Source: a virus (taxonomy: Duplodnaviria > Caudoviricetes). Taken from it: a DNA stretch of 32,804 bases. The stretch's first letter is position 1. Each line of letters starts with the position of its first letter. The DNA is taken from positions 1 through 32,804 of the IMG/VR virus record IMGVR_UViG_3300023092_000150, one strand, 5' to 3'. The notes beneath the pieces were generated by a model. It was not told the DNA's origin and did not search any database. It saw only the letters and a list, made by a program, of their open reading frames with translations. Made by a program: the position numbers and the translations under genes. Below are positions 1,312-32,804 of this stretch, one piece after another.

Positions 1312-1779
1312 CTATTTTTCCATATTATATTTTGGATCAATTGTAATGAGTAACTTTTTTAAAAGTTGTATTAATCGATTTCTTATAGACTTTAAAATCA
1401 ACGTCATTGCATCGAAATTTTCTACTTCTTTTTTTGTCTTTATGGCAATAATATTACTGATGATCGAAATACCATCGCTTACAATAAGTAAATCCATAAC
1501 TATCGTTACACACCAGTTAAAGTCATAATCAAGTCCCTTACTCATTAAGGCCAAAGCTGTTGGTATTACCAATACGGCTAACTTGGAAACAAATCCTACA
1601 GCTAGTTTTTTAAAACTAAATTTGTTATTTAAAACTATGGTTTTTATAATGCCCAGAAAAGTATCCATTACCATTAAATAAAATAGCACTTTTACAATTC
1701 CGGTATCTATTTCTAAATAAATAAAAATAGCATACAGCAATAGTTTTAATTCATTTAAATATTCTGAAAATTTATACAT
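1312..1779 (-). CDS. Phage holin family protein (holin_4-like)
   Basis: 155 aa, several hydrophobic segments, MDTFLG motif, SIISN motif, charged C-terminus; last gene of the tail region. Confidence 0.7.
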   Translation of the reverse strand: MYKFSEYLNELKLLLYAIFIYLEIDTGIVKVLFYLMVMDTFLGIIKTIVLNNKFSFKKLAVGFVSKLAVLVIPTALALMSKGLDYDFNWCVTIVMDLLIVSDGISIISNIIAIKTKKEVENFDAMTLILKSIRNRLIQLLKKLLITIDPKYNMEK

Positions 1780-1812
1780 GATCGGTTTTTTTATAGGTTT
1801 GAGGTTTTTATA

Positions 1813-1850
1813 AGTAATCTTTTGGGGGTTTTACGCCCCAAAAGATTACT
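1813..1850. other. Intergenic stem-loop between fibre and holin genes
   Basis: 15-bp perfect inverted repeat agtaatcttttgggg / ccccaaaagattact; no U-tract on the coding strand. Confidence 0.65.
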
Positions 1851-1868
1851 GGTAATTTCAAATTACTC

Positions 1869-3578
1869 TTATAGAGAACTTATTGTTACTGAAGCTTCCT
1901 TATAGGCAGATGCATTTCCGCTAGGATCTATTGCTCGAACTCTGTAAGTATATGTTCCATTCGATGAAACTTGTTCACTATAATATGTGTTAGGGTTTTT
2001 TTTCAAAACCGTAAAAAGAGAGCCAAAAGCACTACGCGAAAGTTCGTAATCTATTGGACTATCGTCGTCTTGTGATTGAGCCCATTCAAGTAGTATATAA
2101 CCTTGACCATTATGAACGCAATGAAAAAAAGAAGGTAATGTTGGTGGAGTCGAGTCTGCTGTAAGTGTTGCTGTAGTTACTGTAGCGGGCACAGATAAAT
2201 TTCCTGCAGCATCTTTTGCTCTGACCTGGAAGCTGTAGGGAGTATTGACAGATAGCCCCGTAACATTATAAGTCAGAACATCTTTTCCTAATTCGGCTAA
2301 AGGAGTATTACTATTGTCTTTATAAACCAGATAATTAGTAACACCAACATTATCCGTAGATACAGTCCAAGTTAAAGTTAAACTTTTAGTTCCAATCTTT
2401 GAAGTTTCTAAATTTGTTGGACTTGTTGGTGCGATTGTATCAGCATGTTCAATAGTATTTCCTGTATATTCTATGAAATGAACAACTCTATATGGTTGCA
2501 AGTTTTTATTAGTTCCAGATTCTCCTACAGTTGTTGTTTTTGAAATTAGACCCCATTTATATGATCCGTCTTCAAGAGCATTTATACCAGTATTAGGTTC
2601 GTCAAATCCATTGCAGTCATGGCTATGTTCTACAACAACAGCATCTTTACTCCCTCCAGAATTACCCACCTTATTTAGAATAGTATCTAAGAGATCTAAC
2701 CCAACAGGTACTCTTCCTCGCAATGGCACATATTCTTCCCAGCCTTCAGGAAATGGAGCTGGTTTCCCCCAAATAGCAATCATTCCTTTTGGTACTGCTG
2801 TTGCCGGTTGTTTTTCTAACTTAGTAATTCGGCTAAGTAATGAATTGAGGAGGTTATTGCTTTTAATGACTTGATTAACATTGTCTAACAATAACAAAGA
2901 ATTCTCAGAACTCTCAGAACTCTCAAAATCTTCAGGACTGGTATTTAGTTCAGAACCTTTGATTAGTAAATAATTTTTCTTAATATCAACAATATTGGCT
3001 TCGATTGTATTAATATTTCCTTCAACAACATCAATATTACTTTCTACTGCATTAATATTTCCTTCAATTGTAGTGATGTTTGATTTTATTGTAGCAATAT
3101 TTGCTTCAATTGTCTTAATAATTCCTTCAATTGTCTGAATATCTTTAATAACTATAAAAGCTGGATCTTTCAAATCATAATAATGTACAGCTAATGCATC
3201 AGTGATGGGAGGAGATACTGGATGATTTGTGTAATCTATCTCACTGATATACTGTGCTTCATAATCAAAATAAGCAGTTTGAGATTCTCCGTTTCCGTAT
3301 GTTAGATTTGTGCCTGTTCTGGTAGTTTTTAGGTAGCCAGTGTTATCCTCTTTTTTAATAGGATATAATATTCCTTCTATTTCTCCGTCCTGATGGATGA
3401 TCGCCCAACCGGTTGTTGTTTTTGTTGCATGAGCTATGATGTAGTTTTTGCCGGGCTCGATGCCTAAATGACTTTTTAAAGCTCCAAATAACTCATGTCT
3501 GTAAGCGGTTTGAAGTTTTTCCAGAGTTTCTTGTTCGAGAGGAAAACCTCCTGGATGAGTAAAATTTACTTGTTTCAT
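1869..3578 (-). CDS. Tail fibre protein with coiled coil, collar-like domain and two fibronectin type III domains
   Basis: Follows baseplate wedge genes; heptad repeats (IEANI/IEGNI); VPKGMIAIWG..P.GW..LRGRVPVG collar-like motif; FN3 signatures DTIAPTSPTNL..WTVSTDNVGV..Y.FQVRAKDAAGNLS and YTYRVRAIDPSGNAS. Confidence 0.8.
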   Translation of the reverse strand: MKQVNFTHPGGFPLEQETLEKLQTAYRHELFGALKSHLGIEPGKNYIIAHATKTTTGWAIIHQDGEIEGILYPIKKEDNTGYLKTTRTGTNLTYGNGESQTAYFDYEAQYISEIDYTNHPVSPPITDALAVHYYDLKDPAFIVIKDIQTIEGIIKTIEANIATIKSNITTIEGNINAVESNIDVVEGNINTIEANIVDIKKNYLLIKGSELNTSPEDFESSESSENSLLLLDNVNQVIKSNNLLNSLLSRITKLEKQPATAVPKGMIAIWGKPAPFPEGWEEYVPLRGRVPVGLDLLDTILNKVGNSGGSKDAVVVEHSHDCNGFDEPNTGINALEDGSYKWGLISKTTTVGESGTNKNLQPYRVVHFIEYTGNTIEHADTIAPTSPTNLETSKIGTKSLTLTWTVSTDNVGVTNYLVYKDNSNTPLAELGKDVLTYNVTGLSVNTPYSFQVRAKDAAGNLSVPATVTTATLTADSTPPTLPSFFHCVHNGQGYILLEWAQSQDDDSPIDYELSRSAFGSLFTVLKKNPNTYYSEQVSSNGTYTYRVRAIDPSGNASAYKEASVTISSL

Positions 3579-3658: not shown

Positions 3659-4321
3659 TTAATCTTTTTCTGAATAAGAATAGGTTTCATAACTCTTTCC
3701 TGCGAGTTTATAAAAGTTAAGAAGATCGTTGTATTTCTTGTCTGTTACATTAATAGCTTCTGTGTTTGATACAGTTCCTTCTTTCTTTGGTTGACTAAGT
3801 ATTGTTCTATTTGTTAATAGATTTTCAGGGACAAATACTCTGAAATTGGCATAATTTATTTGGGTATAATCTGTACGATGGGCCAGGTAAACAGGTTTAT
3901 TGTTTTTATTTTTTTTATATTCCTCATGAGTATATACTTCTAATTGAGGAATCATCAAAGGCCCATCCACGATAGTGCCATCTGATAAAGTAATCTTTGG
4001 TTCGTAATACTCTTTGTGCAGATACACATATTGGATGGTAGGTTTAACCGATTCGTCTATATAAATTAATCCGTCTGATCGTTTTTGTCTTGTGCTTGCA
4101 TTGGGATTGTAATTTTTATCGGGATTAAAAGTTTCGTTCAATACTTTTTCCAGATAAATGACCTGACCTGTATGCTGCATTTTATAAAGAATCTCTTCGT
4201 AAATTGTATGAAGCGGAGTCAGTAAAACATCGAGCCAGTCAATATGAGTTTTTTTTCTAAGAATAGGAGGGACGAGCCATAACAATAGCTTTTCCCATTT
4301 TAAAACAGTGTATTTGTTCAT
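3659..4321 (-). CDS. Probable baseplate wedge subunit (gpI-like position)
   Basis: Lies between the baseplate J-like and fibre genes; LVPPILRK..WL..LL.PL and GQVIYLEKVLN motifs typical of Bacteroidota prophage baseplates. Confidence 0.6.
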   Translation of the reverse strand: MNKYTVLKWEKLLLWLVPPILRKKTHIDWLDVLLTPLHTIYEEILYKMQHTGQVIYLEKVLNETFNPDKNYNPNASTRQKRSDGLIYIDESVKPTIQYVYLHKEYYEPKITLSDGTIVDGPLMIPQLEVYTHEEYKKNKNNKPVYLAHRTDYTQINYANFRVFVPENLLTNRTILSQPKKEGTVSNTEAINVTDKKYNDLLNFYKLAGKSYETYSYSEKD

Positions 4322-4336: not shown

Positions 4337-5443
4337 CTATTGTTTATCTCTGTAAAATGTGTAAGGAATATAGTTTACCTCAAACTCAAGGGTATCCATA
4401 TCAAAATAACCGGCTTTTGGAATAAAATATTCGATGTTGGTTGCATCAGTAATTGTAGGATTCTGAGCATCATTTGGATTTTTTGCCACAGAAGTCTGAA
4501 CCTTGGTCAGAATTGGAATTTTAACTCCTTCTGCTTTTTGAATATCATCAACAAGATATGTTTTGACAAAAGCACCATTGAATTCAATGTTTTTCAAATG
4601 TTCCCTAACAGCATTTATTACTGGAAACTCTTCTTCGTCGACTATTAAGGAGCCATTTTTTTCATTTAAAGGATCTGTTAATAATGCCAATTCGTACTCT
4701 GCCAGTTTTATTTTTTCCTTGTCTAATAAAAGCCTATTTAAACTTTTTAGCTGATAGTATTCAATGTCCTTTGGGTCGATATAAATAGTCAAAGGATCGA
4801 TGTACACATTCAAATGCAATTTTAGAACATCACCCTGATCTGATGTGATAAATACATGATTTCCTGCGTCTTTTATTTTGGCAATATATTCCTTAAAAGC
4901 AAAGAGTTCATTAGGCACATCGATTCTCGAAATTTTATCACCTTTTACAGTAGCTACTTTTATAAAAACAACTCCAACTTTATTATGAAAATAGTCTGAG
5001 AATATTTCTTCCGGTTTTTTGTTGGGATCAAGCACTGTTTCTAAATCTATTTCGCTTACCGCACAATGTTTGATTATTTTAGCTTCTTCAATTTGTGTTT
5101 CTGAAAGTTTTGAGGTATCAAACTGATACGAACCTTCTTTCCAGATCAGCGACATTCGATTGCTTGAATCCGGATCTATCGACATTCCGTTGCTTGAATC
5201 CGTATCTATCGGCATTCCGTAATGAAAATTCAAAGCCTGTTCGCGATACCAGTTTAGTGTATGCGGCCTTGAAATCAGGGCATTTTTTTCGACTATTTTT
5301 TCGTGAATCCAAATCGCAGTAGCGACTATATTGATCCAAAGTTTCCAAATCGCAGCTTTTGATTCTGTTAAGCCGTTTAGAGAGGTTTGTTTCCCCTTTT
5401 CAATCAGAATTTCGTTCTGTATTTCAGCAATTGTACGTGCCAT
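4337..5443 (-). CDS. Baseplate J-like wedge protein
   Basis: MARTIAEIQ, SKAAIWKLW, PHTLNWY, IKDAG, IEFNG motifs of Bacteroidota baseplate-J-like proteins; synteny. Confidence 0.7.
   Translation of the reverse strand: MARTIAEIQNEILIEKGKQTSLNGLTESKAAIWKLWINIVATAIWIHEKIVEKNALISRPHTLNWYREQALNFHYGMPIDTDSSNGMSIDPDSSNRMSLIWKEGSYQFDTSKLSETQIEEAKIIKHCAVSEIDLETVLDPNKKPEEIFSDYFHNKVGVVFIKVATVKGDKISRIDVPNELFAFKEYIAKIKDAGNHVFITSDQGDVLKLHLNVYIDPLTIYIDPKDIEYYQLKSLNRLLLDKEKIKLAEYELALLTDPLNEKNGSLIVDEEEFPVINAVREHLKNIEFNGAFVKTYLVDDIQKAEGVKIPILTKVQTSVAKNPNDAQNPTITDATNIEYFIPKAGYFDMDTLEFEVNYIPYTFYRDKQ
5151..5220. repeat. 30-bp tandem repeat (2.3 copies) inside the baseplate J-like gene
   Basis: gacattcgattgcttgaatccggatctatc / gacattccgttgcttgaatccgtatctatc / ggcattccgt; encodes GMPIDTDSSN-GMSIDPDSSN-RMS. 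Confidence 0.9.
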
Positions 5444-5610: not shown

Positions 5611-5913
5611 CTAATAAATGATAAAATCATCTTCAATTATCATGTAATCAATTCCGGAAAAGTTATCCAGTAAATATTGTTCTTCGTCTGTAATCGCAGT
5701 TGCAGGTTTTAAATTTCGGGCATTGTAATATTCTACAATATCTTTTTTAAAGGCTTCGCGGCCAATTTTTAAATCTTCGTAAACAGAAATGTCATCTGTA
5801 AGGTCAAATTGATCATTGTCTTCTAAAATATCGAATACTTTTTCGATACTTCCGTATTCCTGTAAAGAGATGTCAAAAATGTTTTGGTTTTCTTGTGGTT
5901 TAATAGTTCCCAT
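5611..5913 (-). CDS. LysM-like / tail X-like baseplate protein (start refined to MGTIKP)
   Basis: QNIFDISLQEYGSIE..F.IL.DN motif; C-terminal GIDYMIIEDDFII; the refined start overlaps the end of the upstream gene. Confidence 0.6.
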   Translation of the reverse strand: MGTIKPQENQNIFDISLQEYGSIEKVFDILEDNDQFDLTDDISVYEDLKIGREAFKKDIVEYYNARNLKPATAITDEEQYLLDNFSGIDYMIIEDDFIIY

Positions 5914-6187
5914 CGATTTTAATGTTTTGTAAATCGTTGACATCTAATGTTTTTACATAAAAATTGTCATACGATAATTGTTTGTCTATTTCGTTTTCTA
6001 GTCTTAGCCTGGAAGTTGCATCCGGGCTGTTGATGTATTTTTTTATTCCTACTCCAAGAATAGGAAACTCTTTATAACTTCCTTTCTGGCTTAACAATAG
6101 ATGTTCTATGTTTTGCTGATCTGCCTCTTTTATGGCAAAATCTCCATTTGTAATTAACAAGTCTTCATCTATGATAAAATCTTTCAT
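5900..6187 (-). CDS. gp25/gpW-like baseplate (sheath initiator) protein
   Basis: 95 aa, GDF..QQNIEHLL..KGSYKEFP.LGVGI motif; synteny with LysM-like and J-like genes. Confidence 0.65.
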   Translation of the reverse strand: MKDFIIDEDLLITNGDFAIKEADQQNIEHLLLSQKGSYKEFPILGVGIKKYINSPDATSRLRLENEIDKQLSYDNFYVKTLDVNDLQNIKIDGNY

Positions 6188-6273: not shown

Positions 6274-6336
6274 TAAAAATAAGCTTTGCTTACGCCTTAA
6301 TCAAGATTTTAAAGCTTAGTAATCAGTAGTTTCAGT
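6274..6336 (-). promoter_or_regulatory. Promoter of the baseplate operon: -7-like element plus conserved upstream motif
   Basis: Minus strand TATTTTTA (6274-6281) and ACTGAAACTACTG (6324-6336), 42 bp apart. Confidence 0.7.
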
Positions 6337-6396: not shown

Positions 6397-6729
6397 TTAA
6401 AACGTAGGAATAATCAGGCTGGTAATAATTTGAATAATCATTTTTATAATATTATTTTTAATGGTATTCAGTTTTATTTTTGATATTCCAGCAGTTTGTA
6501 ATGCTTGTAGTACGGTTAAGTCTAACTGACTTTTTAAAAGCCATTCAAATTCTTCTTCGGTTAAGTCACCGGATGAATAAAGAAGAATCCAGCGTTCCAG
6601 TTTTTCTGTAGAAGTTTGAAAAAAAGCAGACAGGTCTTTTTCTAGCTGAGGTTTAATATCCTTATAACTATTTGCTATAATTGCTTTTAGTTCCTTTTTT
6701 AAGTTTTCTATCACTTTATCTTTGTCCAT
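6397..6729 (-). CDS. Hypothetical helical protein in the endolysin operon
   Basis: 110-aa ORF, 4 bp downstream of the lipoprotein gene, hydrophobic C-terminus. Confidence 0.7.
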   Translation of the reverse strand: MDKDKVIENLKKELKAIIANSYKDIKPQLEKDLSAFFQTSTEKLERWILLYSSGDLTEEEFEWLLKSQLDLTVLQALQTAGISKIKLNTIKNNIIKMIIQIITSLIIPTF

Positions 6730-6733
6730 AATT

Positions 6734-7204
6734 TTAGCTGTTAAGGTTTATTAAATCTAAAAGCTCATCCTTTGACTGTTGGTCTTTTTTAATTTCATAT
6801 TGTATAAGTAAATCAAAAGCTGATAGGATTTGTTTTTTTGATTCTTCTAAAAATGATTTTGAGACAACTCCTTTTGTTTCCCAATGTTTAAAGAAACCTG
6901 CTAAAAGATTTTTGTCTTTATCATTCAGCATCTTCAACATTTCAAAAGTGATTTCATTGTTTGGTTTGTTTTTTTCATATTCGACCAATTTTTCAACGTT
7001 TAGAAATAATTTTTCAATTTCTTTCTGGTTAGCAGAATAGGGAGTCGTGGCCTTGCTGATTAATTTATCAGCTTCTACTTTTAGCTCGATCGTTTTTTCG
7101 TATGAATATTGATCGAATAGAGCAGTTCTTGTAGAGTTGCAGGAAGAAAAAACAAAAGAGATTGCAATAAAAAATAGAAGGTGTTTTAGTTTTAAGTGTT
7201 TCAT
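6734..7204 (-). CDS. Lipoprotein of unknown function
   Basis: Basic N-terminus, hydrophobic stretch, lipobox FSSC; 4 bp downstream of the endolysin gene. Confidence 0.75.
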   Translation of the reverse strand: MKHLKLKHLLFFIAISFVFSSCNSTRTALFDQYSYEKTIELKVEADKLISKATTPYSANQKEIEKLFLNVEKLVEYEKNKPNNEITFEMLKMLNDKDKNLLAGFFKHWETKGVVSKSFLEESKKQILSAFDLLIQYEIKKDQQSKDELLDLINLNS

Positions 7205-7208: not shown

Positions 7209-7691
7209 TTATTTGTATAAGATTACATAGTTTTTTCTATCTCGTTTTAGTTTACTGAGTACTTTCCAGTCGCTGTATCCTTTTTTGTCAAAGTGCGGAA
7301 GATCTTTAAAAGTTTTCCAGTCTCCGCCCCAGTTCCAGTTGTGTTTCTTGAAAATTTCGACACATTCCTGCCAGTCCGAAATTTGATCACCATCCCAGTC
7401 TTTTGCGGTATCCCAGGAAGCTATTTTGCCATCTATAATCAGACAAATGTCTACCGCAAAACCATAATTGTGAATAGATTGTCCGCCTTTGGCATTCGTC
7501 ACTTTTTTTCCTGGTTTTGTTCTGCCAAAAGCATAAAGATCTTCTTGTTCCTGAAAAGTTCTGAGACTTTGCGTAATGCGAACTTTAGCCCGTCCGGTTA
7601 AGGCAAGATCGCATTCCTCGATGATTTTAGTAACTTCTTCCCTAACCGAAGGATGAAGCAAATCAATGTGTTTTTTTGTTGTTTGATCCAT
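7209..7691 (-). CDS. M15 family metallopeptidase (L-Ala-D-Glu peptidase type), probable endolysin
   Basis: RTFQEQ..LY..GRT, SIHNYGFAVD, WGGDW..FKDLPHF zinc-peptidase motifs; no signal peptide. Confidence 0.9.
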   Translation of the reverse strand: MDQTTKKHIDLLHPSVREEVTKIIEECDLALTGRAKVRITQSLRTFQEQEDLYAFGRTKPGKKVTNAKGGQSIHNYGFAVDICLIIDGKIASWDTAKDWDGDQISDWQECVEIFKKHNWNWGGDWKTFKDLPHFDKKGYSDWKVLSKLKRDRKNYVILYK

Positions 7692-7892: not shown

Positions 7893-7955
7893 TAAAAATA
7901 CGCCGAAATAGCGTGTTTGAAAAATAATATGGAGCTGTAATTCAGTAGTCTCAGT
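7893..7955 (-). promoter_or_regulatory. Promoter of the endolysin operon with conserved upstream motif
   Basis: Minus strand TATTTTTA (7893-7900) and ACTGAGACTACTG (7943-7955), 42 bp apart. Confidence 0.7.
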
Positions 7956-8077: not shown

Positions 8078-8536
8078 TTAATCAATACTTAAATACATAG
8101 GTTTGTTTTCGTCCAGGCATTCTTTTGCAATTAAATATATATCATTAAAAGCTACTAAGCGACCATCTGTTGGAGCTTGGTTCCTTGTATCAACTTTAAT
8201 TTCTTTATCGAAAACTATTATAGTATATCCATCTTTTGCAAGTTTTCGGGTAGATAATAAATGATTTATTTCACGTTCAAAGACTGTCTTTATCCCTGAA
8301 ATTTCTTCTATTGATAATTCAATATCTATTATTCCTTTTTTATTAGCTTTTTCTGGAACAACTTCTTTTAATAGATCTAAGACGATAGGATATTTTAAAT
8401 CTAAATTTTTATTACTTCCCCATTTTCTATTTTTAGATTCTAAATCAACAGGATAGAAATCTCTATTAGTTTTTTCTTTAATGGTTGAATTACTTATAAA
8501 TATCCAATCTCCGTTTTCGTATAAATGATTTCCCAT
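8078..8536 (-). CDS. Hypothetical protein, candidate orphan immunity protein
   Basis: 152-aa AT-rich ORF in a tight array downstream of the putative toxin; function inferred from context only. Confidence 0.55.
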   Translation of the reverse strand: MGNHLYENGDWIFISNSTIKEKTNRDFYPVDLESKNRKWGSNKNLDLKYPIVLDLLKEVVPEKANKKGIIDIELSIEEISGIKTVFEREINHLLSTRKLAKDGYTIIVFDKEIKVDTRNQAPTDGRLVAFNDIYLIAKECLDENKPMYLSID

Positions 8537-8553
8537 TTCTTATTCTTTTAAAA

Positions 8554-8862: not shown

Positions 8863-8883
8863 AAATAAAAAACTTTAAATGAA

Positions 8884-9498: not shown

Positions 9499-9598
9499 AT
9501 TTTTTTATTTGGTGAATTTATTAAATCCACATAGAGATTATAAATGTATCTTGTAATTACTTAGAATAGTTGAAATCCAAATTTTGTATTTAAAATTA

Positions 9599-15699: not shown

Positions 15700-15717
15700 A
15701 TGGTGGATTATTTTTGA

Positions 15718-17113: not shown

Positions 17114-17116
17114 TTT

Positions 17117-20865: not shown

Positions 20866-20928
20866 TAAAAGTAGGGTAGAAGGGTGTGAAAAACGAATAA
20901 TTTGCGGTCGGTATTCTGTAGTTTCAGT
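20866..20928 (-). promoter_or_regulatory. Promoter of the hub/spike operon with conserved upstream motif
   Basis: Minus strand TACTTTTA (20866-20873) and ACTGAAACTACAG (20916-20928), 42 bp apart. Confidence 0.7.
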
Positions 20929-23216: not shown

Positions 23217-25660
23217 TATACACTTAGTATTATTTGGTTGGTATTTTCCAATTTTGTCAGATTGAAATATTTTTTCTCTGGAGTAATTTCAGGTTCTCCA
23301 AATACCCATTCAATCTGATTAGCCCATTGCCAGGTTAGATTTACACCTTCTAGTGTGATCGCATTAAATGAAAATTCTTCTGTGGTGATCATAGGCATTC
23401 TTACAATACCACTACTTTTAAAAATGATAGTTTGGCCATTCCAATTTTCCTGGACATCTATATCTCCATTTATAATGATTTGTTTATCCTTTATTTGTCT
23501 TGTTTCAACTGCTGCCGTAACCGCCTTTGATGTTGGAATGCTTGTATCAAAATTTGAGATAGTATCTTTATCAATTGATCTTCCTCTCATATCTGTACCT
23601 AAGGCATCTACACAAAGTACCGTATCAGAAGAATTTGAAGGCATTTTAAACATCTTTTCCGCACCGGTCGTGTCTATGCCATAAAATCTAAGTCCACCGC
23701 TTAAATGACTTTTTTCTACATAATCTCCACTACTACCAGGTACAGTAATGTTTCCATTTTCATCCGCCAAAATTCCATTTACAGAGATGGGTAATGTAAC
23801 ATTTCCTTTCGTTCCTGTTGGAAGTGAAATTGTAGTTGATGTTGCAACATTTGTTGCGTCAAATCCAGTGAAAAATTCTTTATTTACAAATTTAATGCCT
23901 TTTACAAAATACGCTGTATCTGTAGTATAAGAGTTACCAATTATTTGAATCGCTTCTTTCTCTTCCCCGGATTCTGTAAAATCTCTATAATTCATTCTAA
24001 GACTTCCATAAGGATTACCACTAAAAGGTTTGTTAAACACAAATCCCGAAGATTGGTTTATGTAAAAAGACGAATCCAAAGATGTTGGACTTTCAATCTT
24101 TAAGTAACCTCCTTGGATATTTGTACCCGTACCTCCATATAACGTAATACCTTTATTCCTGCCAAAAATAGTTACCCCTTTTGGATTACTTCTAGCATCA
24201 AGTGCAACACCTTCACTTTGATTCATTATTAGAGAACCCAATCCCGAGGCGGCTAAATTAACTCCTCTTGATCCTGATGTGTTAATATCAATTACGTCAT
24301 TTCCACCATATATGGTTACTCCTCTGCCCAAACCTATATCAATGCTACCATTTCCCTGAGTTGTCAAAGCAATACCACGAGATGTCGACATTAAGAAAGC
24401 TGTAGTATTCTCATCCGGAGAAAACATTTCAAATCTTGATGGATTATCAACTGAGTCTTTTAGTTTAATTTGCATTTCACTAACCTGAACTTTCGTGCTA
24501 CCTGTATCAAGTACAGTTTGCCAATTTCCAGCACCTGTTACAGCTACATTTCCTGTAGAATCGGCAATAACACCATTTACAGAAGTTACAATTCTCTTAT
24601 CATTTAACGTGGTGTTATTTGAAACAAACCTTAAGTTTCCTCCTTGAGAATCAATTGTAATTCCTCCAGTCCCTCCACCAATTTCTATTCCTGAGCCTTC
24701 GGAGTTCATTCGTAATGGCTGATTTGTAGCAGCATCTCCGGAAGTTAAAAATCCGCCTCCATTAGATGAATTTAATAAAAAACTTTTAGCTCCTAAGTTA
24801 AAAACTCCATCAGTAAAAGCATCAATTCCTTGCCCTCCCGCTTTCATATTAATATAGCCGTAAGTGTCACCACTAACAGACTGATTACCAATTTTCACGC
24901 TATCTGACACTAAACCAATACTCCCAGTTTCTAATGTTTGCTGTAAATCTTGGTTTCCTCTATCTATAGAGATATCTCCGGTACCTATCAATGATTGATT
25001 ATTAATAGTCTTAAAGTCGCTTTTTGTCGCTAATGTATAAATTCCGCTATTTTTAGTTGGATCTAATTTATAAGATAAATTTTTCCCTACTGGTGGGGTA
25101 TCTCCTGAAAATTGAATTGACCCATAATTAGAAGTGCCTTTCTCTTTTATAGTAGAATGAATACTAATTCCAAGACGACTTGCAGAAATAGTACTTCCCT
25201 GATCTGGTCCTTCTGATCCTATTATTATACCTCCAGGGCCAGAATAATCACTTCCAACTCCAAATAAAGATCCGTTTCCTTGATATTTAAATTGACTGGA
25301 ATCTCCTACTTGTTGTAATGTGGGTACTTTTGATTCTATACTTATATTTCCATTTCCAACAATTTCTTCCCCATTAATTGTTTTAAATTCAGGTTTATTA
25401 ATCAATTGGCTAAAACCAGATTCACTATTCCAATCTGTATTTATTTGCGGTGCATGTGCAATTTTATCAGCTAAGTGATTATCTAGAATGGTTTTATCTG
25501 CTTTGGTTAAAAGCAATTCGTCAATTCCATCGATATCTTTTACGGGAACTTTTTCAAATTTATGTCGGAAGGAATCCCAGGTATCCCAGAATTGCGCCTG
25601 CGATGGTTTAAGACTAGTTTTAAACCAATTTTTTATGGTATTTAATGTTTGTATAGCCAT
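23216..25660 (-). CDS. Tail fibre-like protein A (814 aa)
   Basis: Shared N-terminus MAIQTLNTIKNWFKT.LKPSQ; fibre motifs FKTING, PTLQQV, LQQTLETG, SVNG..AD..GN; Gly-rich beta region. Confidence 0.7.
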   Translation of the reverse strand: MAIQTLNTIKNWFKTSLKPSQAQFWDTWDSFRHKFEKVPVKDIDGIDELLLTKADKTILDNHLADKIAHAPQINTDWNSESGFSQLINKPEFKTINGEEIVGNGNISIESKVPTLQQVGDSSQFKYQGNGSLFGVGSDYSGPGGIIIGSEGPDQGSTISASRLGISIHSTIKEKGTSNYGSIQFSGDTPPVGKNLSYKLDPTKNSGIYTLATKSDFKTINNQSLIGTGDISIDRGNQDLQQTLETGSIGLVSDSVKIGNQSVSGDTYGYINMKAGGQGIDAFTDGVFNLGAKSFLLNSSNGGGFLTSGDAATNQPLRMNSEGSGIEIGGGTGGITIDSQGGNLRFVSNNTTLNDKRIVTSVNGVIADSTGNVAVTGAGNWQTVLDTGSTKVQVSEMQIKLKDSVDNPSRFEMFSPDENTTAFLMSTSRGIALTTQGNGSIDIGLGRGVTIYGGNDVIDINTSGSRGVNLAASGLGSLIMNQSEGVALDARSNPKGVTIFGRNKGITLYGGTGTNIQGGYLKIESPTSLDSSFYINQSSGFVFNKPFSGNPYGSLRMNYRDFTESGEEKEAIQIIGNSYTTDTAYFVKGIKFVNKEFFTGFDATNVATSTTISLPTGTKGNVTLPISVNGILADENGNITVPGSSGDYVEKSHLSGGLRFYGIDTTGAEKMFKMPSNSSDTVLCVDALGTDMRGRSIDKDTISNFDTSIPTSKAVTAAVETRQIKDKQIIINGDIDVQENWNGQTIIFKSSGIVRMPMITTEEFSFNAITLEGVNLTWQWANQIEWVFGEPEITPEKKYFNLTKLENTNQIILSV

Positions 25661-25768
25661 GTTTTTTATTTAGTTATAGATTTTAAAAAAATCAACTGTT
25701 TTAATTGTTGGTAAAGATTTATTTCTGATTTTGAGACTTTTTTTATTTCCTTTATTTGGAATTTATTT

Positions 25769-25960
25769 TTACTTTTTTTCAGTAGAAAATAACGGAGAAA
25801 TACTGGATAATAATGCCGACAGAACCAAACCGATTAATTTGATTCTGTTAATGTTTACCAAGGAAAAACCCACTTCTTGTAAAAGTTCAAATTTAGTATC
25901 GATCATTCCTGTTAGAACGATTAAAATACTAACGATAACTGCAATTTTTGATTTATTCAT
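25769..25960 (-). CDS. Small two-TM membrane protein (start refined to MNKSK)
   Basis: 63 aa with two hydrophobic helices, between two fibre genes. Confidence 0.55.
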   Translation of the reverse strand: MNKSKIAVIVSILIVLTGMIDTKFELLQEVGFSLVNINRIKLIGLVLSALLSSISPLFSTEKK

Positions 25961-25982
25961 ATTTGTATTTATTAGTTTAATG

Positions 25983-28900
25983 TTATGGTAATTTCCCAAC
26001 TTGATACATCACCCAACCGGATAGTAATTTTTTACAGATCAGTGAGTATGGAGTAGAATCTAAAAAAGTAACTTCATCACCTTCTTTAGCATTTGGGTAT
26101 AATGAATTTAGTTCTGCGTTTGTTGTAGGAGCCGTAGTTGATGCGTTAGTGTATATTTTAATTAGATACTCTTTAGTCACTAAAGATTTAGCTCCCCCTG
26201 AATCAATTAAAGCATTTGTTAATGTCGGAGCTAATAATCTGTTATCAGCTTCTTTTCTAATTGCAATGTTCCCACTACCATCTGATAACAAGGCTAAATT
26301 TGAAGCATCTGTAGGTAATCCTGTAACATTACCAATAACTGTATTATTATTCCCAGTAGTGACACCCGTAGATGTTGAACCTTGTTTTAATATTACATTA
26401 TTACTTCCTGTTGTAATTGTAGCACTAAATATATCTTGATTTTCAATTAAAACATTGTTTGATCCTGATGTAAGTTGCCCTCCTGCTTGAAATCCCATAA
26501 CAATATTACGTGTCCCTGTAGAAACAACACTTGGTAGACCCATTGCTAAATACCCTATAGCAATATTATCATCACTTGTTATTCCTCCTCCTGCGGCTGC
26601 TCCAATTGCTGTATTCCTACTACCTGTTAAATTATTAGTTAATGCACTTGCACCTATACCAAGATTAAATCCCCCTGTTGTTGTATATCTTAAAGTAGAT
26701 GCTCCTAAACCTACATTTTGTGTTCCTGTTGTTAAATTAGCAAGTGTAACAGCTCCAACTGCTGTATTAAAGCCTCCAGTTGTAGCAAGAGCTAATGTAG
26801 ATCTACCTATAGCAGTATTAGCAGTAGATGTAGTGGCTGATGTTAAAGCATTTGATCCTAATGCTGTATTACCATTATTAGTGCTATTATTACCTCTACC
26901 TATTCTTATTCCATTTATAATCTTATCAACTCCTCCCAATTCTTGTAAAGAGGTATTATCGACTATACCTGATTGAGTTGCTGAGGCTGGTAAAATTGTA
27001 GGTATATCGTCTGTCGTTGCTATAGTATAACTTCCTTGAGGTTTTGTGTTGGAAAACGAAAAAGTCCTATTTTCTGTAGCATTAGCAGGAAATGTTAATT
27101 GTGTAAATTTACCTCCTGAACCAGTAACATTAATAAAAGTAGGCGCATAAGATGTACTTGCTCCTGATGTTGTATTTAGAAATCTAACTCTATCATTATC
27201 TAGTAAAACATCCTTATCTGAGTAGCTAATCGCAAGTGCTCTATCCCCAAAATTACCTGCTGTTAGAACCTGTGCTAAAGTTGGTTTAGGTGCTGATGCA
27301 ATATCCGCTGTTGTTGCTAATGTATAATTACCTGCTATAGAGGGGGCAGGAAATACTATACCTGTATTGGCTACAGGTTCTGCAACTGCTATATTTGTTT
27401 CATAAGTCTCCCCCTTTTTATATAAATTAATACCTGCACTTTCACTTATACCTATAAATTCGTTAGCATTTCCTGATCCTTTATATAAAGCTAATCTAAC
27501 ATAGTCAGGTGTCTGTTTAAATTGAGTTTCTACATAGCTCGATCCTGATAAACCATTTGACATATACATAAAATTATTTGCAAGACCACCACTCCCTGCC
27601 ATAAGATTAATTCCACTGTTTTCTTTTGTAGCGGAAGCTGTATTGTCTACAATTTTTTGCAAAGAAACATCATCTGTAGTCGCTAATTTATAAGTAGTAT
27701 CTACTGATGGGTTTTTATTAGGTATTTGAAAGGTACTTCTTGATCCTGTCTGATCTTCAAACTCTAGTAAAGCATCATGTGTATTGTTTTGTTCTTGTAA
27801 TCTAATTTTACCAGAAGAAACATCTAAATAAGCATCTCTACTAATTCCAGCATTTAGGTATGTATGTCTAAGTTGTATATTATTTTTATTAATAATTCCA
27901 TCTGATGTTTTTGATTCGCCAGATTCTACATCTTCTCCTGATGTGTAAAACTCTATTGCACCATTACCATCAAACATACTCAATTCTTGGATTCCACCAT
28001 TATAGCTAAATTCAGCTGAACCACCATTTTCTAAAGTTTGTTGTAAGTTTTGCGACGAACCTCCTGAGTGTGCATCTAAATACTCTTTAGTCACTAAAGA
28101 TTTAGCTCCCCCTGAATCAATTAAAGCATTTGTTAAACCAGGTGCTAATAATCTATTATCTGTTTCTTTTCTTAAAGCAACATTCCCTATTCCATCTGAT
28201 AGAGATATTGTATTTTCAGAATCAGAGGGAAGTCCAGTAATCTTACCTAAAACCACATTACCATTACCTGTTGTTATTCCACTAGTTAAACCTTGATTAG
28301 GTCCTATAACTAGATTATTTGAACCAGTGGTTAATGAGCCAGGTGTTAAACTAGAATTTGAAGTAGCTCCAATAATTATGTTATTATTACCAGTGCTAAT
28401 TGTACTACCAGCCATATTTCCAATAGCAATATTTGAAATTCCATTACTACTATATAATGAATATGCTCCAAGAGAAGTATTATATCCACCAGTCGTATTT
28501 GTTTGTAGTGAAGAAGCTCCTGCACTTACGTTGTTATTTCCTGTAGTATTATTATATAAAGCATTTGACCCAAATGCCATGTTTAATGTTCCTGTAGTAT
28601 TAAACATTAAAGATTGAGTTCCAAAAGCAGAATTAAAACTTGCCGTAGTATTTGACATTAAAGCATTTCTACCAACTGCTGTATTACTGGGTCCTGTTGT
28701 ATTTGCAGTTAAGGCATTACATCCAACGGCTGTATTATTATTTCCTGTGGTATTTGAATTTAAGGTACCAAAACCTAATGCACTACTTCTAAGTCCTGTA
28801 GATACTTCATTTGTATAACCAGAAGAAAAAACAACATTAGAAATATCTTGGTTATTACCTCTTCCAATCCTTACCCCATTTATAAGCTTATCAACTCCTC

Positions 28901-29567
28901 CCAATTCTTGCAAAGAAGTGTTATCGACTATACCTGATTGAGTTGCTGAAACTACCTGATCTGTAGCTAATTTATAAGGAGTACTGCTATCTGGCATTTC
29001 TGGAAAACTAAAAGTATTTTGTCCTGCTGATTCTCCATCAAAAAGTAATTTTAAATTTTTATCTCCTTTGCTCCAGTTTATATTATCACCATTGTATTGA
29101 ATTCCTTCTCCTAGTGGACCATCAATTGATAAGTTTTTAGAATCTATTGTAGCACTATATTCTTCGTCTAAAAATACAATTGGCTGAGTAAGGGATTTAT
29201 TGTCGGAATTTAATACCTGATCTAATGTAGGAATTGCCGAACTAATAGTAATATCTCCATCTCCAACTATTGCTTCTCCATTAATAGTTTTAAATTCAGG
29301 TTTATTAATCAATTGGCTCAAACCAGATTCGCTATTCCAATCTGTATTTACTTGTGGGGCGTGGGCAATTTTATCAGCTAAATGATTATCTAAAATTGTT
29401 TTATCTGCTTTGGTTAAAAGCAATTCGTCAATTCCATCGATATCTTTTACGGGAACTTTTTCAAATTTATGTCGAAAGGAATCCCAGGTATCCCAGAATT
29501 GTGCCTGCGATGGTTTAAGACCAGTTTTAAACCAATTTTTTATGGTATTTAATGTTTGTATTGCCAT
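25983..29567 (-). CDS. Tail fibre-like protein B (1194 aa) with duplicated beta-solenoid module
   Basis: Same N-terminus; 14-aa NTAVG..AL..NTTG repeats (YadA-head-like) in two blocks. Confidence 0.75.
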   Translation of the reverse strand: MAIQTLNTIKNWFKTGLKPSQAQFWDTWDSFRHKFEKVPVKDIDGIDELLLTKADKTILDNHLADKIAHAPQVNTDWNSESGLSQLINKPEFKTINGEAIVGDGDITISSAIPTLDQVLNSDNKSLTQPIVFLDEEYSATIDSKNLSIDGPLGEGIQYNGDNINWSKGDKNLKLLFDGESAGQNTFSFPEMPDSSTPYKLATDQVVSATQSGIVDNTSLQELGGVDKLINGVRIGRGNNQDISNVVFSSGYTNEVSTGLRSSALGFGTLNSNTTGNNNTAVGCNALTANTTGPSNTAVGRNALMSNTTASFNSAFGTQSLMFNTTGTLNMAFGSNALYNNTTGNNNVSAGASSLQTNTTGGYNTSLGAYSLYSSNGISNIAIGNMAGSTISTGNNNIIIGATSNSSLTPGSLTTGSNNLVIGPNQGLTSGITTGNGNVVLGKITGLPSDSENTISLSDGIGNVALRKETDNRLLAPGLTNALIDSGGAKSLVTKEYLDAHSGGSSQNLQQTLENGGSAEFSYNGGIQELSMFDGNGAIEFYTSGEDVESGESKTSDGIINKNNIQLRHTYLNAGISRDAYLDVSSGKIRLQEQNNTHDALLEFEDQTGSRSTFQIPNKNPSVDTTYKLATTDDVSLQKIVDNTASATKENSGINLMAGSGGLANNFMYMSNGLSGSSYVETQFKQTPDYVRLALYKGSGNANEFIGISESAGINLYKKGETYETNIAVAEPVANTGIVFPAPSIAGNYTLATTADIASAPKPTLAQVLTAGNFGDRALAISYSDKDVLLDNDRVRFLNTTSGASTSYAPTFINVTGSGGKFTQLTFPANATENRTFSFSNTKPQGSYTIATTDDIPTILPASATQSGIVDNTSLQELGGVDKIINGIRIGRGNNSTNNGNTALGSNALTSATTSTANTAIGRSTLALATTGGFNTAVGAVTLANLTTGTQNVGLGASTLRYTTTGGFNLGIGASALTNNLTGSRNTAIGAAAGGGITSDDNIAIGYLAMGLPSVVSTGTRNIVMGFQAGGQLTSGSNNVLIENQDIFSATITTGSNNVILKQGSTSTGVTTGNNNTVIGNVTGLPTDASNLALLSDGSGNIAIRKEADNRLLAPTLTNALIDSGGAKSLVTKEYLIKIYTNASTTAPTTNAELNSLYPNAKEGDEVTFLDSTPYSLICKKLLSGWVMYQVGKLP

Positions 29568-29890
29568 GTTTTTTCTTTTAAATTTATTTGATTATCGAAC
29601 TTTTAAGATGTTAGGACAAAAGAAAAGCGTCCTGTATATTTTTTATGATTGTCAATTTATGGGAAAATTATATTCTCAGATTGAAATCTTTTTTTAAGTA
29701 TTCGATTAAGAAAAAGCGAAAATTATTTTTGTTGGGAATTTTAGGCATTTTTCTTCTGCCCTCTGATAATAAAGAATTCATGGTGGTATTTGTTTAATTG
29801 ATTTATATTAATGAGATAATTGTTTTTTGAAGAATAGCAGGAGTAATTCTGATTGTTATAAATAGTGTTACTATTTAAATTTTGTGGGTG

Positions 29891-29954
29891 TAAAAGTAGT
29901 TTAGAAGAATACAAAAAATGAAAAATTTAAACTCAGTTTTTCGGTAGTTTCAGT
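29891..29954 (-). promoter_or_regulatory. Promoter of the fibre B/A/adhesin operon with conserved upstream motif
   Basis: Minus strand TACTTTTA (29891-29898) and ACTGAAACTACCG (29942-29954), 43 bp apart. Confidence 0.7.
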
Positions 29955-30070
29955 GGAATGTAAGTAGAGGTAAAGTTTAGTTATATAATTATTTTATGTT
30001 TTTGTCTCGATTTATAGATGTTGATTTGTGTAAGAATAAAACTAATTTTTGTCATCTGATATTTGCTAAC

Positions 30071-30125
30071 AAAAAACACCCAAGATCATTAGGAACAAGT
30101 GTTCTTCATGATTTTGGGTGTATTT
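30071..30125 (-). terminator. Terminator after the fibre C operon
   Basis: aaaaaacacccaagatcat..atgattttgggtgt inverted repeat, similar to the 21000 hairpin. Confidence 0.65.
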
Positions 30126-30229
30126 GAAAATAAAAAGAGTTTATTTTAGAACAATAGGTGGCTTTAAATTTTTGTCTTAAGAGTTAAGTTTCTTTTATTA
30201 CTCATTCAGTAGCCGACGGCTGATTGTTT

Positions 30230-30650
30230 TTAAAAATTAAATCTTCCATCCTCGTCTTCAGAAATGATGTAACCTTTTAAGATGTCTTCTAATTTGACAG
30301 GTGTTTTTAAAATGAGTTTTATCAAATAGTTAAATGCTGGCATTGTAAAATATCGCTCGCTTTCGTTTAAAATTGTACCGTCACCATCTTTTTCTTCAAT
30401 GAAATTTCGGTTTAAGATTGGTTTAAAATTTTCATCCCGAACGATCATCATAATGGAATTATCAACGTGTCAATCTGGTACTTGCTGATTGAACATTGAA
30501 AGTTACATCTTGGCCATCTTTTTCATAGATTATTCTATAATTTAGGTCAAAAGTTGAAATATCTAAGTTCATTTGAATACCCGCAATTTCAATTGTTCTT
30601 TGGACATCTGGAAAAATTTTGCTGTTTGAAATTTTTTGTGTGATTGACAT
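30230..30650 (-). pseudogene. Disrupted fibre-associated small protein
   Basis: Removing one base at 30499-30501 and reading through TGA at 30470-30472 joins the two ORFs: ..DVTSMFNQQVPD*HVDNSIMMIVRDENF.. Confidence 0.6.
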
Positions 30651-30659
30651 TAATTTGTT

Positions 30660-32804
30660 TTATTTAATGGTTTCTATATATAGAGCATAGTTATTATTTC
30701 TGATCACTTTTCTTTTATTTTCACCCAATGCATTTGTAGCATCAGCATAAGTAATTGTATTTTTAAACGCAAACGAAAAAGACGCTTCAGAAGCTGAAAA
30801 TGTTCGTGAATTTGCATCATCTCTTAAGTAGTATAATGCATCAGAATTACTTACAACACCGTCAACTATACTTTGAACGACAAATCGAATTGTTGACCAT
30901 TGAGCTGTTAATGGGTTACTTGTATGCATATCGGTTAAAATTGTATTTTGATAATTTTTTAAACCATTATTTTTTAGCCCAGAAAATTCCATGATTTTAA
31001 CTTGGTTTATTGCACCTCTACCAGTGTAATCTGTTGCAAAAAGGCCATTATTTATTTTTAAGAATACTTCCGTTTTTGCAATCGTTGGCTCTATTGAACC
31101 AACTAGTGGAGAGGTATTTAGAAAATATGTTTCATTAGTAGCGTTTAGTCTTAACACTGACACATACCTTATGCTTCCTATAACTGACAAACTTGAAGTC
31201 TTTTCATATATAGCAGAAATTGCTCCAGTTATATCTGTCTGTATCGTACTTAATGACTTGTATGCTAGTAAAATCAAACCATCAGCTGATGTAATCAATT
31301 TTGATCTAATTCCATTGTGCGTTTCCCATAGTAGACCATTGGAATCACGTTCAATCGCGCCGTTTTGAGGAACTGTTGTTAATACCCCATTTGGAATAAG
31401 GATACCTTGAGAAAAATTCCAAACTGCTTTAATTGTTTGAGCTTGCGATTTCATACTTTCCCACCAATTGAACAATTTAGATCGACTAACGACTTTGTTA
31501 TCTTCTGCAACAGATACAGTAGTTTGCGTTTCGGCATCCGTTGCAAGTGTTGCTGTCAATTTAATTTGATCCAACTGCTTACCCATTTCGGCTGTCAATG
31601 CTTTAGCAACTCCTCCTGTTTTAAGGTCGTTGACCAAGATAGTTGACAAGTAAGATTCAACGTTTTCAATTGCATCAACTATCTCCTGAATGGTATCCAA
31701 ATCAATATTATCAGACGACAATAATGTATTGATTCCGTTTATTTGATTTTGTAACAGCTTACCCTGTTCGGCGCTTAAAATAGATGTTGCGCCTCCAGTA
31801 ATCAAATCGTTTACTATGTATAAATATTGACTCGCTAATTTGGTTAACGAATCAAGAGGAGCATAACCATTAGCCAAACCTTTTTGCGATTTATCTTCTT
31901 TATTCAGGTCTAAAGTTTTCCCCATTTCAGCTGTTAACGCCTTCGTAACCCCGCCAGTAGTCAAATCATTAACTAAAATGCTGCTTAATGAAACCTGAAC
32001 AGTTTCTATTGCATCAACAATTTCCTGAATAGTATCCAGATTGATATTGTCTGAACTTAAAACTGTTAATATATCATCAATCTGACTTTGCAGAACAACT
32101 CCTTGCTCAGCAGATAATGAAGCTGTTGCACCTCCGGCTGTTAGATTGTTAACGATTGACAAATATTGATGTGCAATTTTTGAAAACTCATCTAAAGGAG
32201 CATAACCATTAGCCAAACCTTTTTGCGATTTATCCTCTTTATTCAGCTCTAAAATTTTCCCCATCTCTGCTGTCAAAGCTTTTGTGATACCTCCGGTAGT
32301 AAGGTCATTTACCAAAATAGTATCTATTGACGTTTGAATTTGTGTAACAGCATCTACAATTTTCTGAACTGTATCGAGATCAACATTATCACATTTTAAT
32401 AATCTATTAATATTGTCTATTTGGTTTTGCAAAACAACACCTTGTTCAGCTGATAGTATTGAGTTTTCACCTCCAGCTGTTAAGTTGTTGATTAAATTAA
32501 GATACTGATGAGTAATTTTTGAAAACTCGTCTAAAGGAACATAACCGCCGGCCACACCTTTTTGATATTTATCTTCTTTACCTGAAAATAAACCAGCATG
32601 GGCAATTTGATCGTTTTTATGATCGTCTAACTGCGATTTTTCAGCTTTTGTATCCAGCGTAGTTTCAAGTTCTTCAATATCTTTTATTGGTACTTTTTCA
32701 TATTTGTGTCGAAAAGAATCCCAAGTATCCCAAAATTGATCCTGAGAAGGTTTTAAACCTGTTTTAAACCATTTTTTTATGGTGTTTAATGTTTGAATTG
32801 CCAT
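30660..32804 (-). CDS. Tail fibre-like protein C (714 aa)
   Basis: Same N-terminal motif; fibre repeats KG.A.GYAPLD, NDLTTGG..KALTAEMGK, LDTIQEIVDAI. Confidence 0.75.
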   Translation of the reverse strand: MAIQTLNTIKKWFKTGLKPSQDQFWDTWDSFRHKYEKVPIKDIEELETTLDTKAEKSQLDDHKNDQIAHAGLFSGKEDKYQKGVAGGYVPLDEFSKITHQYLNLINNLTAGGENSILSAEQGVVLQNQIDNINRLLKCDNVDLDTVQKIVDAVTQIQTSIDTILVNDLTTGGITKALTAEMGKILELNKEDKSQKGLANGYAPLDEFSKIAHQYLSIVNNLTAGGATASLSAEQGVVLQSQIDDILTVLSSDNINLDTIQEIVDAIETVQVSLSSILVNDLTTGGVTKALTAEMGKTLDLNKEDKSQKGLANGYAPLDSLTKLASQYLYIVNDLITGGATSILSAEQGKLLQNQINGINTLLSSDNIDLDTIQEIVDAIENVESYLSTILVNDLKTGGVAKALTAEMGKQLDQIKLTATLATDAETQTTVSVAEDNKVVSRSKLFNWWESMKSQAQTIKAVWNFSQGILIPNGVLTTVPQNGAIERDSNGLLWETHNGIRSKLITSADGLILLAYKSLSTIQTDITGAISAIYEKTSSLSVIGSIRYVSVLRLNATNETYFLNTSPLVGSIEPTIAKTEVFLKINNGLFATDYTGRGAINQVKIMEFSGLKNNGLKNYQNTILTDMHTSNPLTAQWSTIRFVVQSIVDGVVSNSDALYYLRDDANSRTFSASEASFSFAFKNTITYADATNALGENKRKVIRNNNYALYIETIK
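31563..32579 (-). repeat. Three tandem 339-bp (113-aa) repeats in fibre C
   Basis: KEDK codons begin at 32579, 32240 and 31901, exactly 339 bp apart. Confidence 0.9.

Follow-up and report, generated by a model that had tools for sequence, protein, structure and literature searches.

The 32,804-nt window analysed here, the whole of the IMG/VR virus-catalogue record IMGVR_UViG_3300023092_000150, starts at a NamZ gene and ends at the ATG of a fibre-like gene, fib714. Its genes make up most of a domesticated contractile tail whose ancestry lies in Winoviridae (Mu-like) phages, and 28 records of such elements are filed as virus in IMG/VR. The element is a conserved tail cluster in which neither head genes nor a tape measure protein (TMP) were found, and we consider it probable that it encodes a syringe, likely released by lysis, that is predicted to inject competitor bacteria with interchangeable antibacterial toxins. 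This reading is built on gene content, the lack of head and TMP matches, purifying selection, a polymorphic toxin and immunity slot, and a shared promoter box. If it is right, a common soil and freshwater genus, Flavobacterium, harbours an independently domesticated contractile injection machine outside the Afp core-gene set of surveys of extracellular contractile injection systems (eCIS).

Gene content, descent and conservation

We scanned the 35 open reading frames (ORFs) of the window with Pfam, PHROG and NCBIfam profiles; the ORF cut-off was 60 aa, and a 59-aa gene therefore fell below the listing. Library profiles name the sheath, the tube, two PHROG 'baseplate hub' genes, a holin, an M15 endolysin, a helix-turn-helix (HTH)-S24 repressor and three of the four fibre-like genes (Table 1). 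For genes without a library name, hidden Markov models (HMMs) of the element's gene families match Flavobacterium phage vB_FspM_lotta8-1 (lotta8-1) or Winogradskyella phage Peternella_1: the gp25-like, LysM-position, J, I, spike-position and tail completion proteins, both chaperones and the 59-aa ORF. Tail genes are named after lambda gpG/gpGT and the P2/Mu genes, the LysM/gpX label presumably applying by gene order. The closest named phages are Winoviridae, with sheath identities of 28-34%. An earlier sequence-only reading of this DNA had listed sheath, tube, chaperones, hub, baseplate, fibres, holin, endolysin and repressor, all borne out by these profile matches; the spike that it also named stands by orthology (lotta gp43) and position rather than by fold. 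That reading overlooked the absent TMP, the putative activator, the promoter box, the large second cargo beyond position 32,804 and a variant of relatives with a DUF4280 tip.

Capsid, portal, terminase, integrase, replication and AAA+ genes were not found among the scanned ORFs, none of which contains a Walker A motif. Head, packaging and transposase proteins of lotta8-1 and Peternella_1 had no match in the window, and across 96 loci their head and transposase proteins matched only in the intact-prophage loci L053, L096 and L054. According to PMC8776804, Winoviridae have myoviridal, Mu-like structural genes and a core head set of protease, capsid, portal and neck; none of this set was found in the element, nor, in the comparison with Winoviridae proteins, was any packaging, adaptor or neck gene. 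Both intact-prophage controls carry the Mu portal family; of 45 carrier genomes, 42 gave no match to it and three have it on other contigs. The flanks read in 14 Flavobacterium genomes hold host genes or islands and no head genes, and the headless interpretation put forward earlier is upheld.

A sheath search returned 54 GTDB loci, 40 of them with 67-98% identity, and the gene order of the window recurs in the roughly 40 Flavobacterium loci among the matches listed (L021-L027 were covered through the cargo-slot and dN/dS analyses). In a genus sample the tube matched only 32 of 401 genomes, 19 of them at 98-100% identity, and the element is therefore patchy; a family-level search with the chaperone gave 5 of 401. 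Mean pairwise Nei-Gojobori ratios of non-synonymous to synonymous substitution rates (dN/dS) over L001-L039, with 0-35 saturated pairs dropped per gene, range across 20 genes from 0.007 (tube) to 0.28 (spike) at dS around 1, and core gene lengths are largely constant between species. The tail genes are thus under strong purifying selection. This selection, together with the lack of a cognate portal in 42 of 45 genomes and of packaging, adaptor or neck genes, largely refutes a decaying cryptic prophage or a satellite borrowing a helper's head, an explanation that would suit the filing as a virus record, the patchiness (a near-identical tube in 19 of 401 genus genomes), the variable flanks and three broken accessory genes. 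Decay without purifying selection, the outcome that the sequence-only reading had named as fatal to its proposal, was not what we found.

That reading had also spoken of a NamZ site. A conserved NamZ site was rejected: NamZ adjoins the element in only three of the genomes whose holin side was read (G001, G003, G086). The far side adjoins fumC and an M23 gene directly in G210 and G139 and within about 25 kb in G001 and G002, and differs elsewhere. Two flanking regions, both set apart from the element by host genes, were not counted as part of it. One is a prophage-like region in G003 (L062:11195-20000), about 23 kb away; within it, a 320-aa ORF at 14692-15651 of L062 has a start that, by impression from sequence, resembles a reverse transcriptase. 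The other lies between fumC and the element in G002 (L058:5095-17348) and is an island headed by a recombinase, with genes resembling nucleases and helicases. The element and a TssN match were also seen in a metagenome-assembled genome labelled Limnohabitans (L047), probably through a mis-binned Flavobacteriaceae contig. Parts of the window also occur in 13 RNA or RNA-guessed runs, four of which were compared, all as contigs. In run X5 the tube contig has a depth of 2211 versus 75 for the NamZ-holin contig; this was not used as evidence, because contig depth cannot rank genes or exclude DNA.

The tape measure slot and its cargos

In the Winoviridae phages and in five headless loci of Aquimarina and Tenacibaculum, a TMP of 408-757 aa lies between the chaperones and DUF6046. 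The window has no TMP-like ORF, and a profile of the five headless-locus TMPs found no match in 38 of 40 other genomes; the matches in the other two include contigs carrying the Mu portal. In marine TMP-less loci the slot, within a single operon, instead reads chaperone, cargo 1, immunity gene, large protein, immunity gene, an o64-like gene, fused chaperone and DUF6046, and in Flavobacterium these pieces are dispersed over separate operons. The 64-aa protein o64 is a candidate remnant of the TMP C-terminus (Table 1). Sister headless elements that have kept the TMP include L041, L042, L044, L045, L050 and L052 (Aquimarina, Tenacibaculum); in L042, L044, L045 and L050 the tip gene is of DUF4280 type, and the flank read of these TMP-keeping elements showed no recognisable lysis gene. 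A single-operon TMP-less version was seen in another Flavobacteriaceae genome (L125-L126, G734:C10), with no repressor, activator or box seen.

Phylogenies place these forms in relation to phages. In the tree of sheath, tube and chaperone (33 taxa), four intact phages or prophages fall outside a single clade that holds all headless elements (support 98) and in which the TMP-less forms do not group as one; on DUF6046 and hub the TMP-less forms are one clade, sister to the TMP-bearing headless forms. The two trees conflict, and a single TMP loss and an exchange of modules would both fit.

The gene behind the chaperone, cargo 1, has a conserved leader of about 45 aa and a variable body of about 280-850 aa, whose C-terminal types fall into 28 clusters among 44 proteins. 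Pfam toxin or nuclease domains above cut-off occur in 13 of 43 cargos (Tox-MPTase2, Tox-MPTase4, EndoU, AHH, Endonuclea_NS_2). Behind the window's own cargo, over 8078-10919, GC is 0.25, and three array genes are 63-91% identical to genes directly behind other cargo types in other species. Their resemblance to such genes is why an orphan immunity reading fits. With a conserved N-terminus, a variable C-terminus and both adjacent and orphan immunity genes, the slot has the features of a polymorphic toxin system, whose toxicity and protection are predicted. The toxin cargo proposed in the earlier reading thereby gains comparative support from a leader-tagged variable slot, toxin domains and immunity arrays. 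An orphan cargo, a leader-bearing 421-aa gene followed by a lipoprotein-like gene, lies among host genes far from the tail locus in G231:C8 (L124:6161-8240).

The C-terminal domain of the window cargo has no Pfam match but 88 relatives, several of them named RHS, one fused to DUF4280 and one to TssD. Its structure model has a predicted local distance difference test score (pLDDT) of 90.9 and, in a wide structure comparison, resembles SleB with Z 7.6, a root-mean-square deviation of 2.7 and 105 residues aligned (next other protein 3.6), a Z below 8 that possibly reflects a common arrangement. An Atlas lead of 0.86 names SleB/Hydrolase_2, a family found on 30% of the cluster, and a Glu serves as the catalytic residue of SleB. 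In Foldseek, SleB fills the top three rows, but the E of 0.56 is not significant. The window cargo is predicted to be a SleB-like peptidoglycan lyase.

The sequence to the right of 32,804, which the sequence-only reading had marked for inspection, proves in relatives to continue the element with a large second cargo. A divergent gene of about 1,000-1,400 aa (cargo 2) stands just beyond the window edge in 14 of 14 flanks read and in L040. It has a conserved N-terminal part of about 350 aa, and its C-termini form 9 clusters among 17, including M23 and lysozyme domains and weak M15 and CHAP matches; cargo 2 is often a peptidoglycan hydrolase. Lipoprotein-like genes lie directly behind many copies. 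The N-terminal 340 aa were modelled as a long helix followed by a disordered stretch (mean pLDDT 58), with no BFVD match at E <= 0.001 and no Atlas match. Copies of the cargo-2 leader also occur away from the tail locus, at G408:C4:919910 and G424:C21:61407 (609-aa and 1,082-aa frames).

TMPs often carry M23- or lysozyme-type C-terminal domains. Cargo 2 might accordingly be read as a rearranged tape measure with a cell-wall-hydrolase end, in a more ordinary tailocin with one added toxin. This reading, which partly overlaps the one we prefer, draws on its length, its nearly always single copy, its place in the TMP slot of four Aquimarina loci and the helix at the start of the model; we rate it as unlikely, given that no TMP profile matches cargo 2, that the TMP-C-like motif sits at its N-terminus, and that its ends vary and are often followed by lipoprotein-like genes.

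The injection of leader-tagged toxins draws on the distribution of the leaders. Each is found in 39 of 40 TMP-less versus none of five TMP-bearing genomes, although the leader profiles were built from the same loci and detection there is partly by construction. A profile of the TMP C-terminus aligned in register (hhalign) with o64 (17.5), the cargo-1 leader (19.3) and the cargo-2 leader (20.2), against a maximum of 16.6 and a mean of 9.1 over 102 control windows. Derivation of the leaders from the TMP C-terminus is plausible on these alignments.

A shared promoter box and the proposed mode of action

The motif CTGARAYTAC occurs in 8 copies in the window against 0.24 expected. Six of the copies lie 44-45 nt before TAnnTTT[AG], which we take to resemble the Bacteroidota -7 element, at operon starts, and the division into about six operons made in the earlier reading therefore holds. 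In five carriers the box with the -7 pattern gave 37 matches, 34 of them in the element (including sites before cargo 2 and fib714), one at an orphan cargo and two elsewhere; five non-carrier genomes gave none. The orphan site precedes the leader-toxin-lipoprotein pair on another contig of G231, with the box 44 nt before a -7-like element. The Aquimarina orthologue of the 59-aa protein has a weak PHROG late activator match (E 0.006), and on such weak matches the gene is likely an activator. In S24 repressors the AG, Ser and Lys motifs mark the self-cleavage site and its catalytic pair; of 40 HTH-S24 copies, 39 retain them in full, and a contig end cuts the other. Repressor, putative activator and box appear to make up one regulon, which also marks an orphan toxin elsewhere.

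We propose the following sequence of events. DNA damage would lead to cleavage of the S24 repressor and free the terminator-activator operon, whereupon the 59-aa protein would bind the CTGARAYTAC box and switch on all operons, orphan cargo genes included. Baseplate, tube and sheath would then come together, the part of the TMP C-terminus being taken by the 64-aa remnant and both cargo leaders. The tube would thereby carry cargo 1 and the large cargo 2, with aid from the retained chaperones, and these cargos may set its length. Holin and endolysin would lyse the producer, variable fibres would bind the target and the sheath would contract, kin being protected by the lipoprotein and by an array of antidotes against the cargos of other strains. 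Particle formation, release by lysis and delivery are what we infer from the genes.

Several points weigh against this scheme. Particles, induction, loading and killing are predictions from gene content, and the scheme leaves the tail without its usual ruler; at cut-off, Pfam assigns no toxin or nuclease domain to 30 of 43 cargos. Leaders and TMP show weak homology, with pairwise E values of about 1e-3 to 4e-3. When 8 TMP C-termini (that of L053 was left out, as its ORF ends early) were used for a blind HMM search over 7,891 frames, no leader was significant, the best having E 3.7 and only one standing near the top. Three accessory genes of the window are split by frameshifts or stops (21142-23216, 30230-30650 and about 9600-10124). 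Finally, the marine flanks that were read showed neither a holin nor an endolysin orthologue, and six Aquimarina repressors are HTH-only, without an S24 domain; lysis release may therefore not be general.

Two other uses of the same genes have to be weighed. The element could be a cargo-free R-type tailocin that kills by puncture, its toxins being passengers under shared regulation that leave by lysis or through some other export system. The repressor, small activator, box and holin/endolysin follow the layout of pyocins (PrtR, PrtN and P-box), the window toxin domain is also found on RHS, DUF4280 and TssD proteins, and TssN, a component of type VI secretion systems (T6SS), is present in 19 of 45 carriers. 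We nonetheless consider passenger toxins improbable: the leaders track TMP loss and fill the TMP slot, cargos that are nucleases must enter the target cell, TssN went unmatched in 21 of 40 TMP-less genomes, and in 16 of 36 loci a DUF4280-type gene and then variable genes come after a spike with a beta-helix end. Pfam confirms DUF4280 in all four genes tested, three of them from these 16 loci. Those tips (DUF4280 is PAAR-like), the T6SS-type toxin domains of relatives and the missing TMP might instead point to a machine retained in the cell, contact-dependent or intracellular, whose length is set by the cell as in a T6SS; lineage II eCIS are likewise described without Afp14 (PMC6899500). Such a machine is very improbable, with no membrane-complex or ATPase gene found in the window ORFs. 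The conserved holin, the endolysin under the same box, the terminator and several fibre-like genes favour single-use release.

Beyond its action, the syringe may represent a separately evolved contractile injection class. In that tentative history, to which we give slightly less than even weight, a Winoviridae phage gave rise to a headless tail with a TMP (Aquimarina, Tenacibaculum) and this to a TMP-less tail, as the baseplate-docking C-terminus of the TMP split off and was copied into the 64-aa plug and two toxin leaders; the toxins would take the place of the TMP in the tube, with the leader of about 45 aa as a portable loading tag. If true, the route from phage tail to cargo syringe ran through head loss and then replacement of the TMP by leader-tagged toxins, and what controls the length of a ruler-less tail becomes a direct question. 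Leader and promoter box would also become a means of finding new antibacterial toxin domains, since many cargos have no Pfam toxin or nuclease domain.

Comparison with known contractile systems and catalogue of features

The element shares with the Winoviridae lotta8-1 and Peternella_1 orthologous sheath, tube, chaperones, DUF6046, hub, spike-position, gp25, LysM-position, J, I and tail completion proteins, the 59-aa ORF and the fibre N-module. It differs in its lack of genes for head, portal, terminase, neck, adaptor, transposase and TMP, in the division of its genes into box-controlled operons, and in added toxin and immunity cassettes.

With R-type tailocins it has in common contractile tail genes of myophage type without head, packaging or replication genes, and a lysis cassette with a CI-like S24 repressor of predicted self-cleavage; its repressor, activator and box presumably parallel PrtR, PrtN and the P-box of pyocins. 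R-pyocins keep a tape measure, which the element appears to lack, although cargo 2 may act as ruler. It also differs in phage ancestry and in its polymorphic toxins and immunity arrays. R-pyocins are described as killing mechanically in PMC12961389; the gene content of the element argues against cargo-free puncture.

Like the Afp, PVC, MAC, BIS and AlgoCIS systems, the element is predicted to form a free contractile particle with toxin cargo. PVC cargos are loaded by N-terminal signals (PMC12961389), some eCIS carry toxin-immunity pairs (PMC8213781), and the Afp15 AAA+ ATPase is in the eCIS core list (PMC6899500). The counterpart of the loading signal here would be the conserved leaders on variable toxins, orphan included. 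An Afp15-like AAA+ ATPase was not found (no family match and no Walker A in the window ORFs), and Pfam and NCBIfam scans of the 35 ORFs, rather than dbeCIS or eCIStem HMMs, found no Afp1/5 tube, Afp2/3/4 sheath, Afp8 fused VgrG, Afp16 terminator or DUF4157, as the sequence-only reading had held for Afp-type genes and the ATPase. Unlike eCIS, the element encodes hub and spike separately and comes with chaperones of phage type and with lysis and regulatory genes of its own. Lack of a TMP alone already has precedent in lineage II eCIS (PMC6899500).

T6SS-iii resembles the element in lacking a TMP and in shared toxin domains and, in relatives, in DUF4280 tips and lipoprotein-like immunity genes; no Tss gene was found in the locus (TssB/C/D, ClpV or membrane complex). 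TssN was not found in 26 of 45 carriers, and its lack in 21 of 40 TMP-less genomes, the closest relative included, makes a T6SS unlikely as the general route. MuF polymorphic toxins are likewise tied to a phage structural module, but are predicted to be packaged in the head (PMC3482391), whereas the element is headless and its slot is the tail TMP position.

The element is predicted to act in the manner of an eCIS under control of tailocin type, but it belongs neither to the Afp/PVC eCIS nor to T6SS-iii, and it falls outside intact Winoviridae and, having no TMP, outside strict R-tailocins. We found no description of this system, nor any pairing of 'DUF2586' with 'sheath', in a literature search that lay mostly outside subscription journals, supplements and survey tables. 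A Flavobacterium contractile injection system with Pvc13/Alg19-like fibres is mentioned in PMC12210884. The element is apparently an undescribed contractile injection family, set apart here without comparison to that system, and dbeCIS, eCIStem or PhageTAILor tables could list it.

Table 1. Features of the window, by position.
Feature	Coordinates	Strand	Evidence
Holin (Phage_holin_4_1)	1312..1779	-	PF05105 E 5e-8; PHROG holin E 5e-22
fib569, tail-fibre-position, C-terminal FN3	1869..3578	-	fn3 and PHROG tail-fibre matches; after J and I in relatives
Baseplate I-position wedge protein	3659..4321	-	Family HMM vs lotta gp48 E 2e-12; dN/dS 0.12
Baseplate J-position wedge protein	4337..5443	-	Family HMM vs lotta gp47 E 1e-37; dN/dS 0.11
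LysM/gpX-position baseplate protein	5611..5943	-	Family HMM vs Peternella gp52, lotta gp45, E <= 5e-11
gp25-like wedge protein	5900..6187	-	PHROG baseplate E 1e-3; lotta gp44 E 3e-18
Regulon box before gp25-J-I-fibre-holin operon	6326..6335	-	
Two conserved genes (156-aa lipoprotein-like, 110 aa), co-transcribed with endolysin	6397..7204	-	dN/dS 0.13, 0.17
M15 endolysin	7209..7691	-	PF13539 E 2e-18; PHROG endolysin E 5e-33
Regulon box before endolysin operon	7945..7954	-	
Predicted orphan immunity array (152, 102, 204 aa; one frameshifted gene at about 9600-10124)	8078..10124	-	Identity to post-cargo genes elsewhere
Lipoprotein, predicted cognate immunity	10179..10919	-	Lipobox-like; same pair adjacent in G188 at 77%/82%
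Cargo 1: conserved leader (~45 aa) and predicted SleB-like lytic transglycosylase toxin	10923..11897	-	Invariant Glu120
Tail assembly chaperone (gpG-like)	11937..12281	-	Peternella gp46 E 9e-10; dN/dS 0.05
Tail tube	12622..13047	-	PHROG tail protein E 1e-21; 96-99% identity across Flavobacterium loci; dN/dS 0.007
Contractile sheath (DUF2586)	13187..14503	-	DUF2586 E 7e-70; PHROG tail sheath
Regulon box before sheath-tube-chaperone-cargo operon	14796..14805	-	Also before sheath in 7 non-Flavobacterium loci
59-aa putative late activator	14810..14989	-	lotta gp33 E 8e-8; dN/dS 0.055
Tail completion/terminator protein	15124..15720	-	lotta gp31 E 2e-5
Divergent control region	15721..15980	.	Box at 15771-15780; four AT[AG]TGTT candidate operators
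CI/LexA-type repressor, HTH and S24	15981..16781	+	AG, Ser, Lys motifs intact
Spike-position protein (333 aa) and 82-aa tip-position protein	16865..18118	-	lotta gp43 E 8e-9
Baseplate hub (433 aa) and DUF6046 tube-initiator-position protein (185 aa)	18128..19979	-	PHROG baseplate hub E 6e-38, 3e-13; dN/dS 0.076, 0.035
Fused second chaperone (gpGT-like)	19999..20469	-	C-part vs lotta gp39 E 2e-5
o64, 64-aa conserved protein, candidate TMP C-terminus remnant	20533..20727	-	dN/dS 0.16; hhalign 17.5 vs control maximum 16.6; located where TMP ends in single-operon relatives
Regulon box before o64-hub-spike operon	20918..20927	-	
PKD-PARCEL (DUF285) accessory gene, frameshift-split in window	21142..23216	-	Unsplit, as one ORF, in F. 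piscis and further relatives
Three paralogous fibre-like genes (814, 1194, 714 aa), common N-terminal module, small accessory ORFs	23216..32804	-	Module vs lotta gp46 E 2e-12
Regulon box among fibre-like genes	29944-29953		

The 156-aa and 110-aa genes beside the endolysin are presumed lysis accessories; neither has a family match above cut-off, and the 110-aa ORF has one weak PHROG 'head morphogenesis' match (E 0.004). The split at 30230-30650 is also present in F. piscis. Aquimarina orthologues of the fused second chaperone align to the first chaperone at 29-37%. Sheath, J and the fibre N-module have no sequence match among solved structures. Across L001-L039 the sheath varies from 385 to 449 aa, the shorter copies lacking about residues 187-238, and the tube is nearly invariant. 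Among the fibre-like genes, fib814 has no Pfam or PHROG match, fib1194 matches PHROG virion and tail-spike families, and fib714 carries PF22337 fibre repeats; in L105 and L117 the N-module genes have multiplied, with five or six of them in 20 kb.

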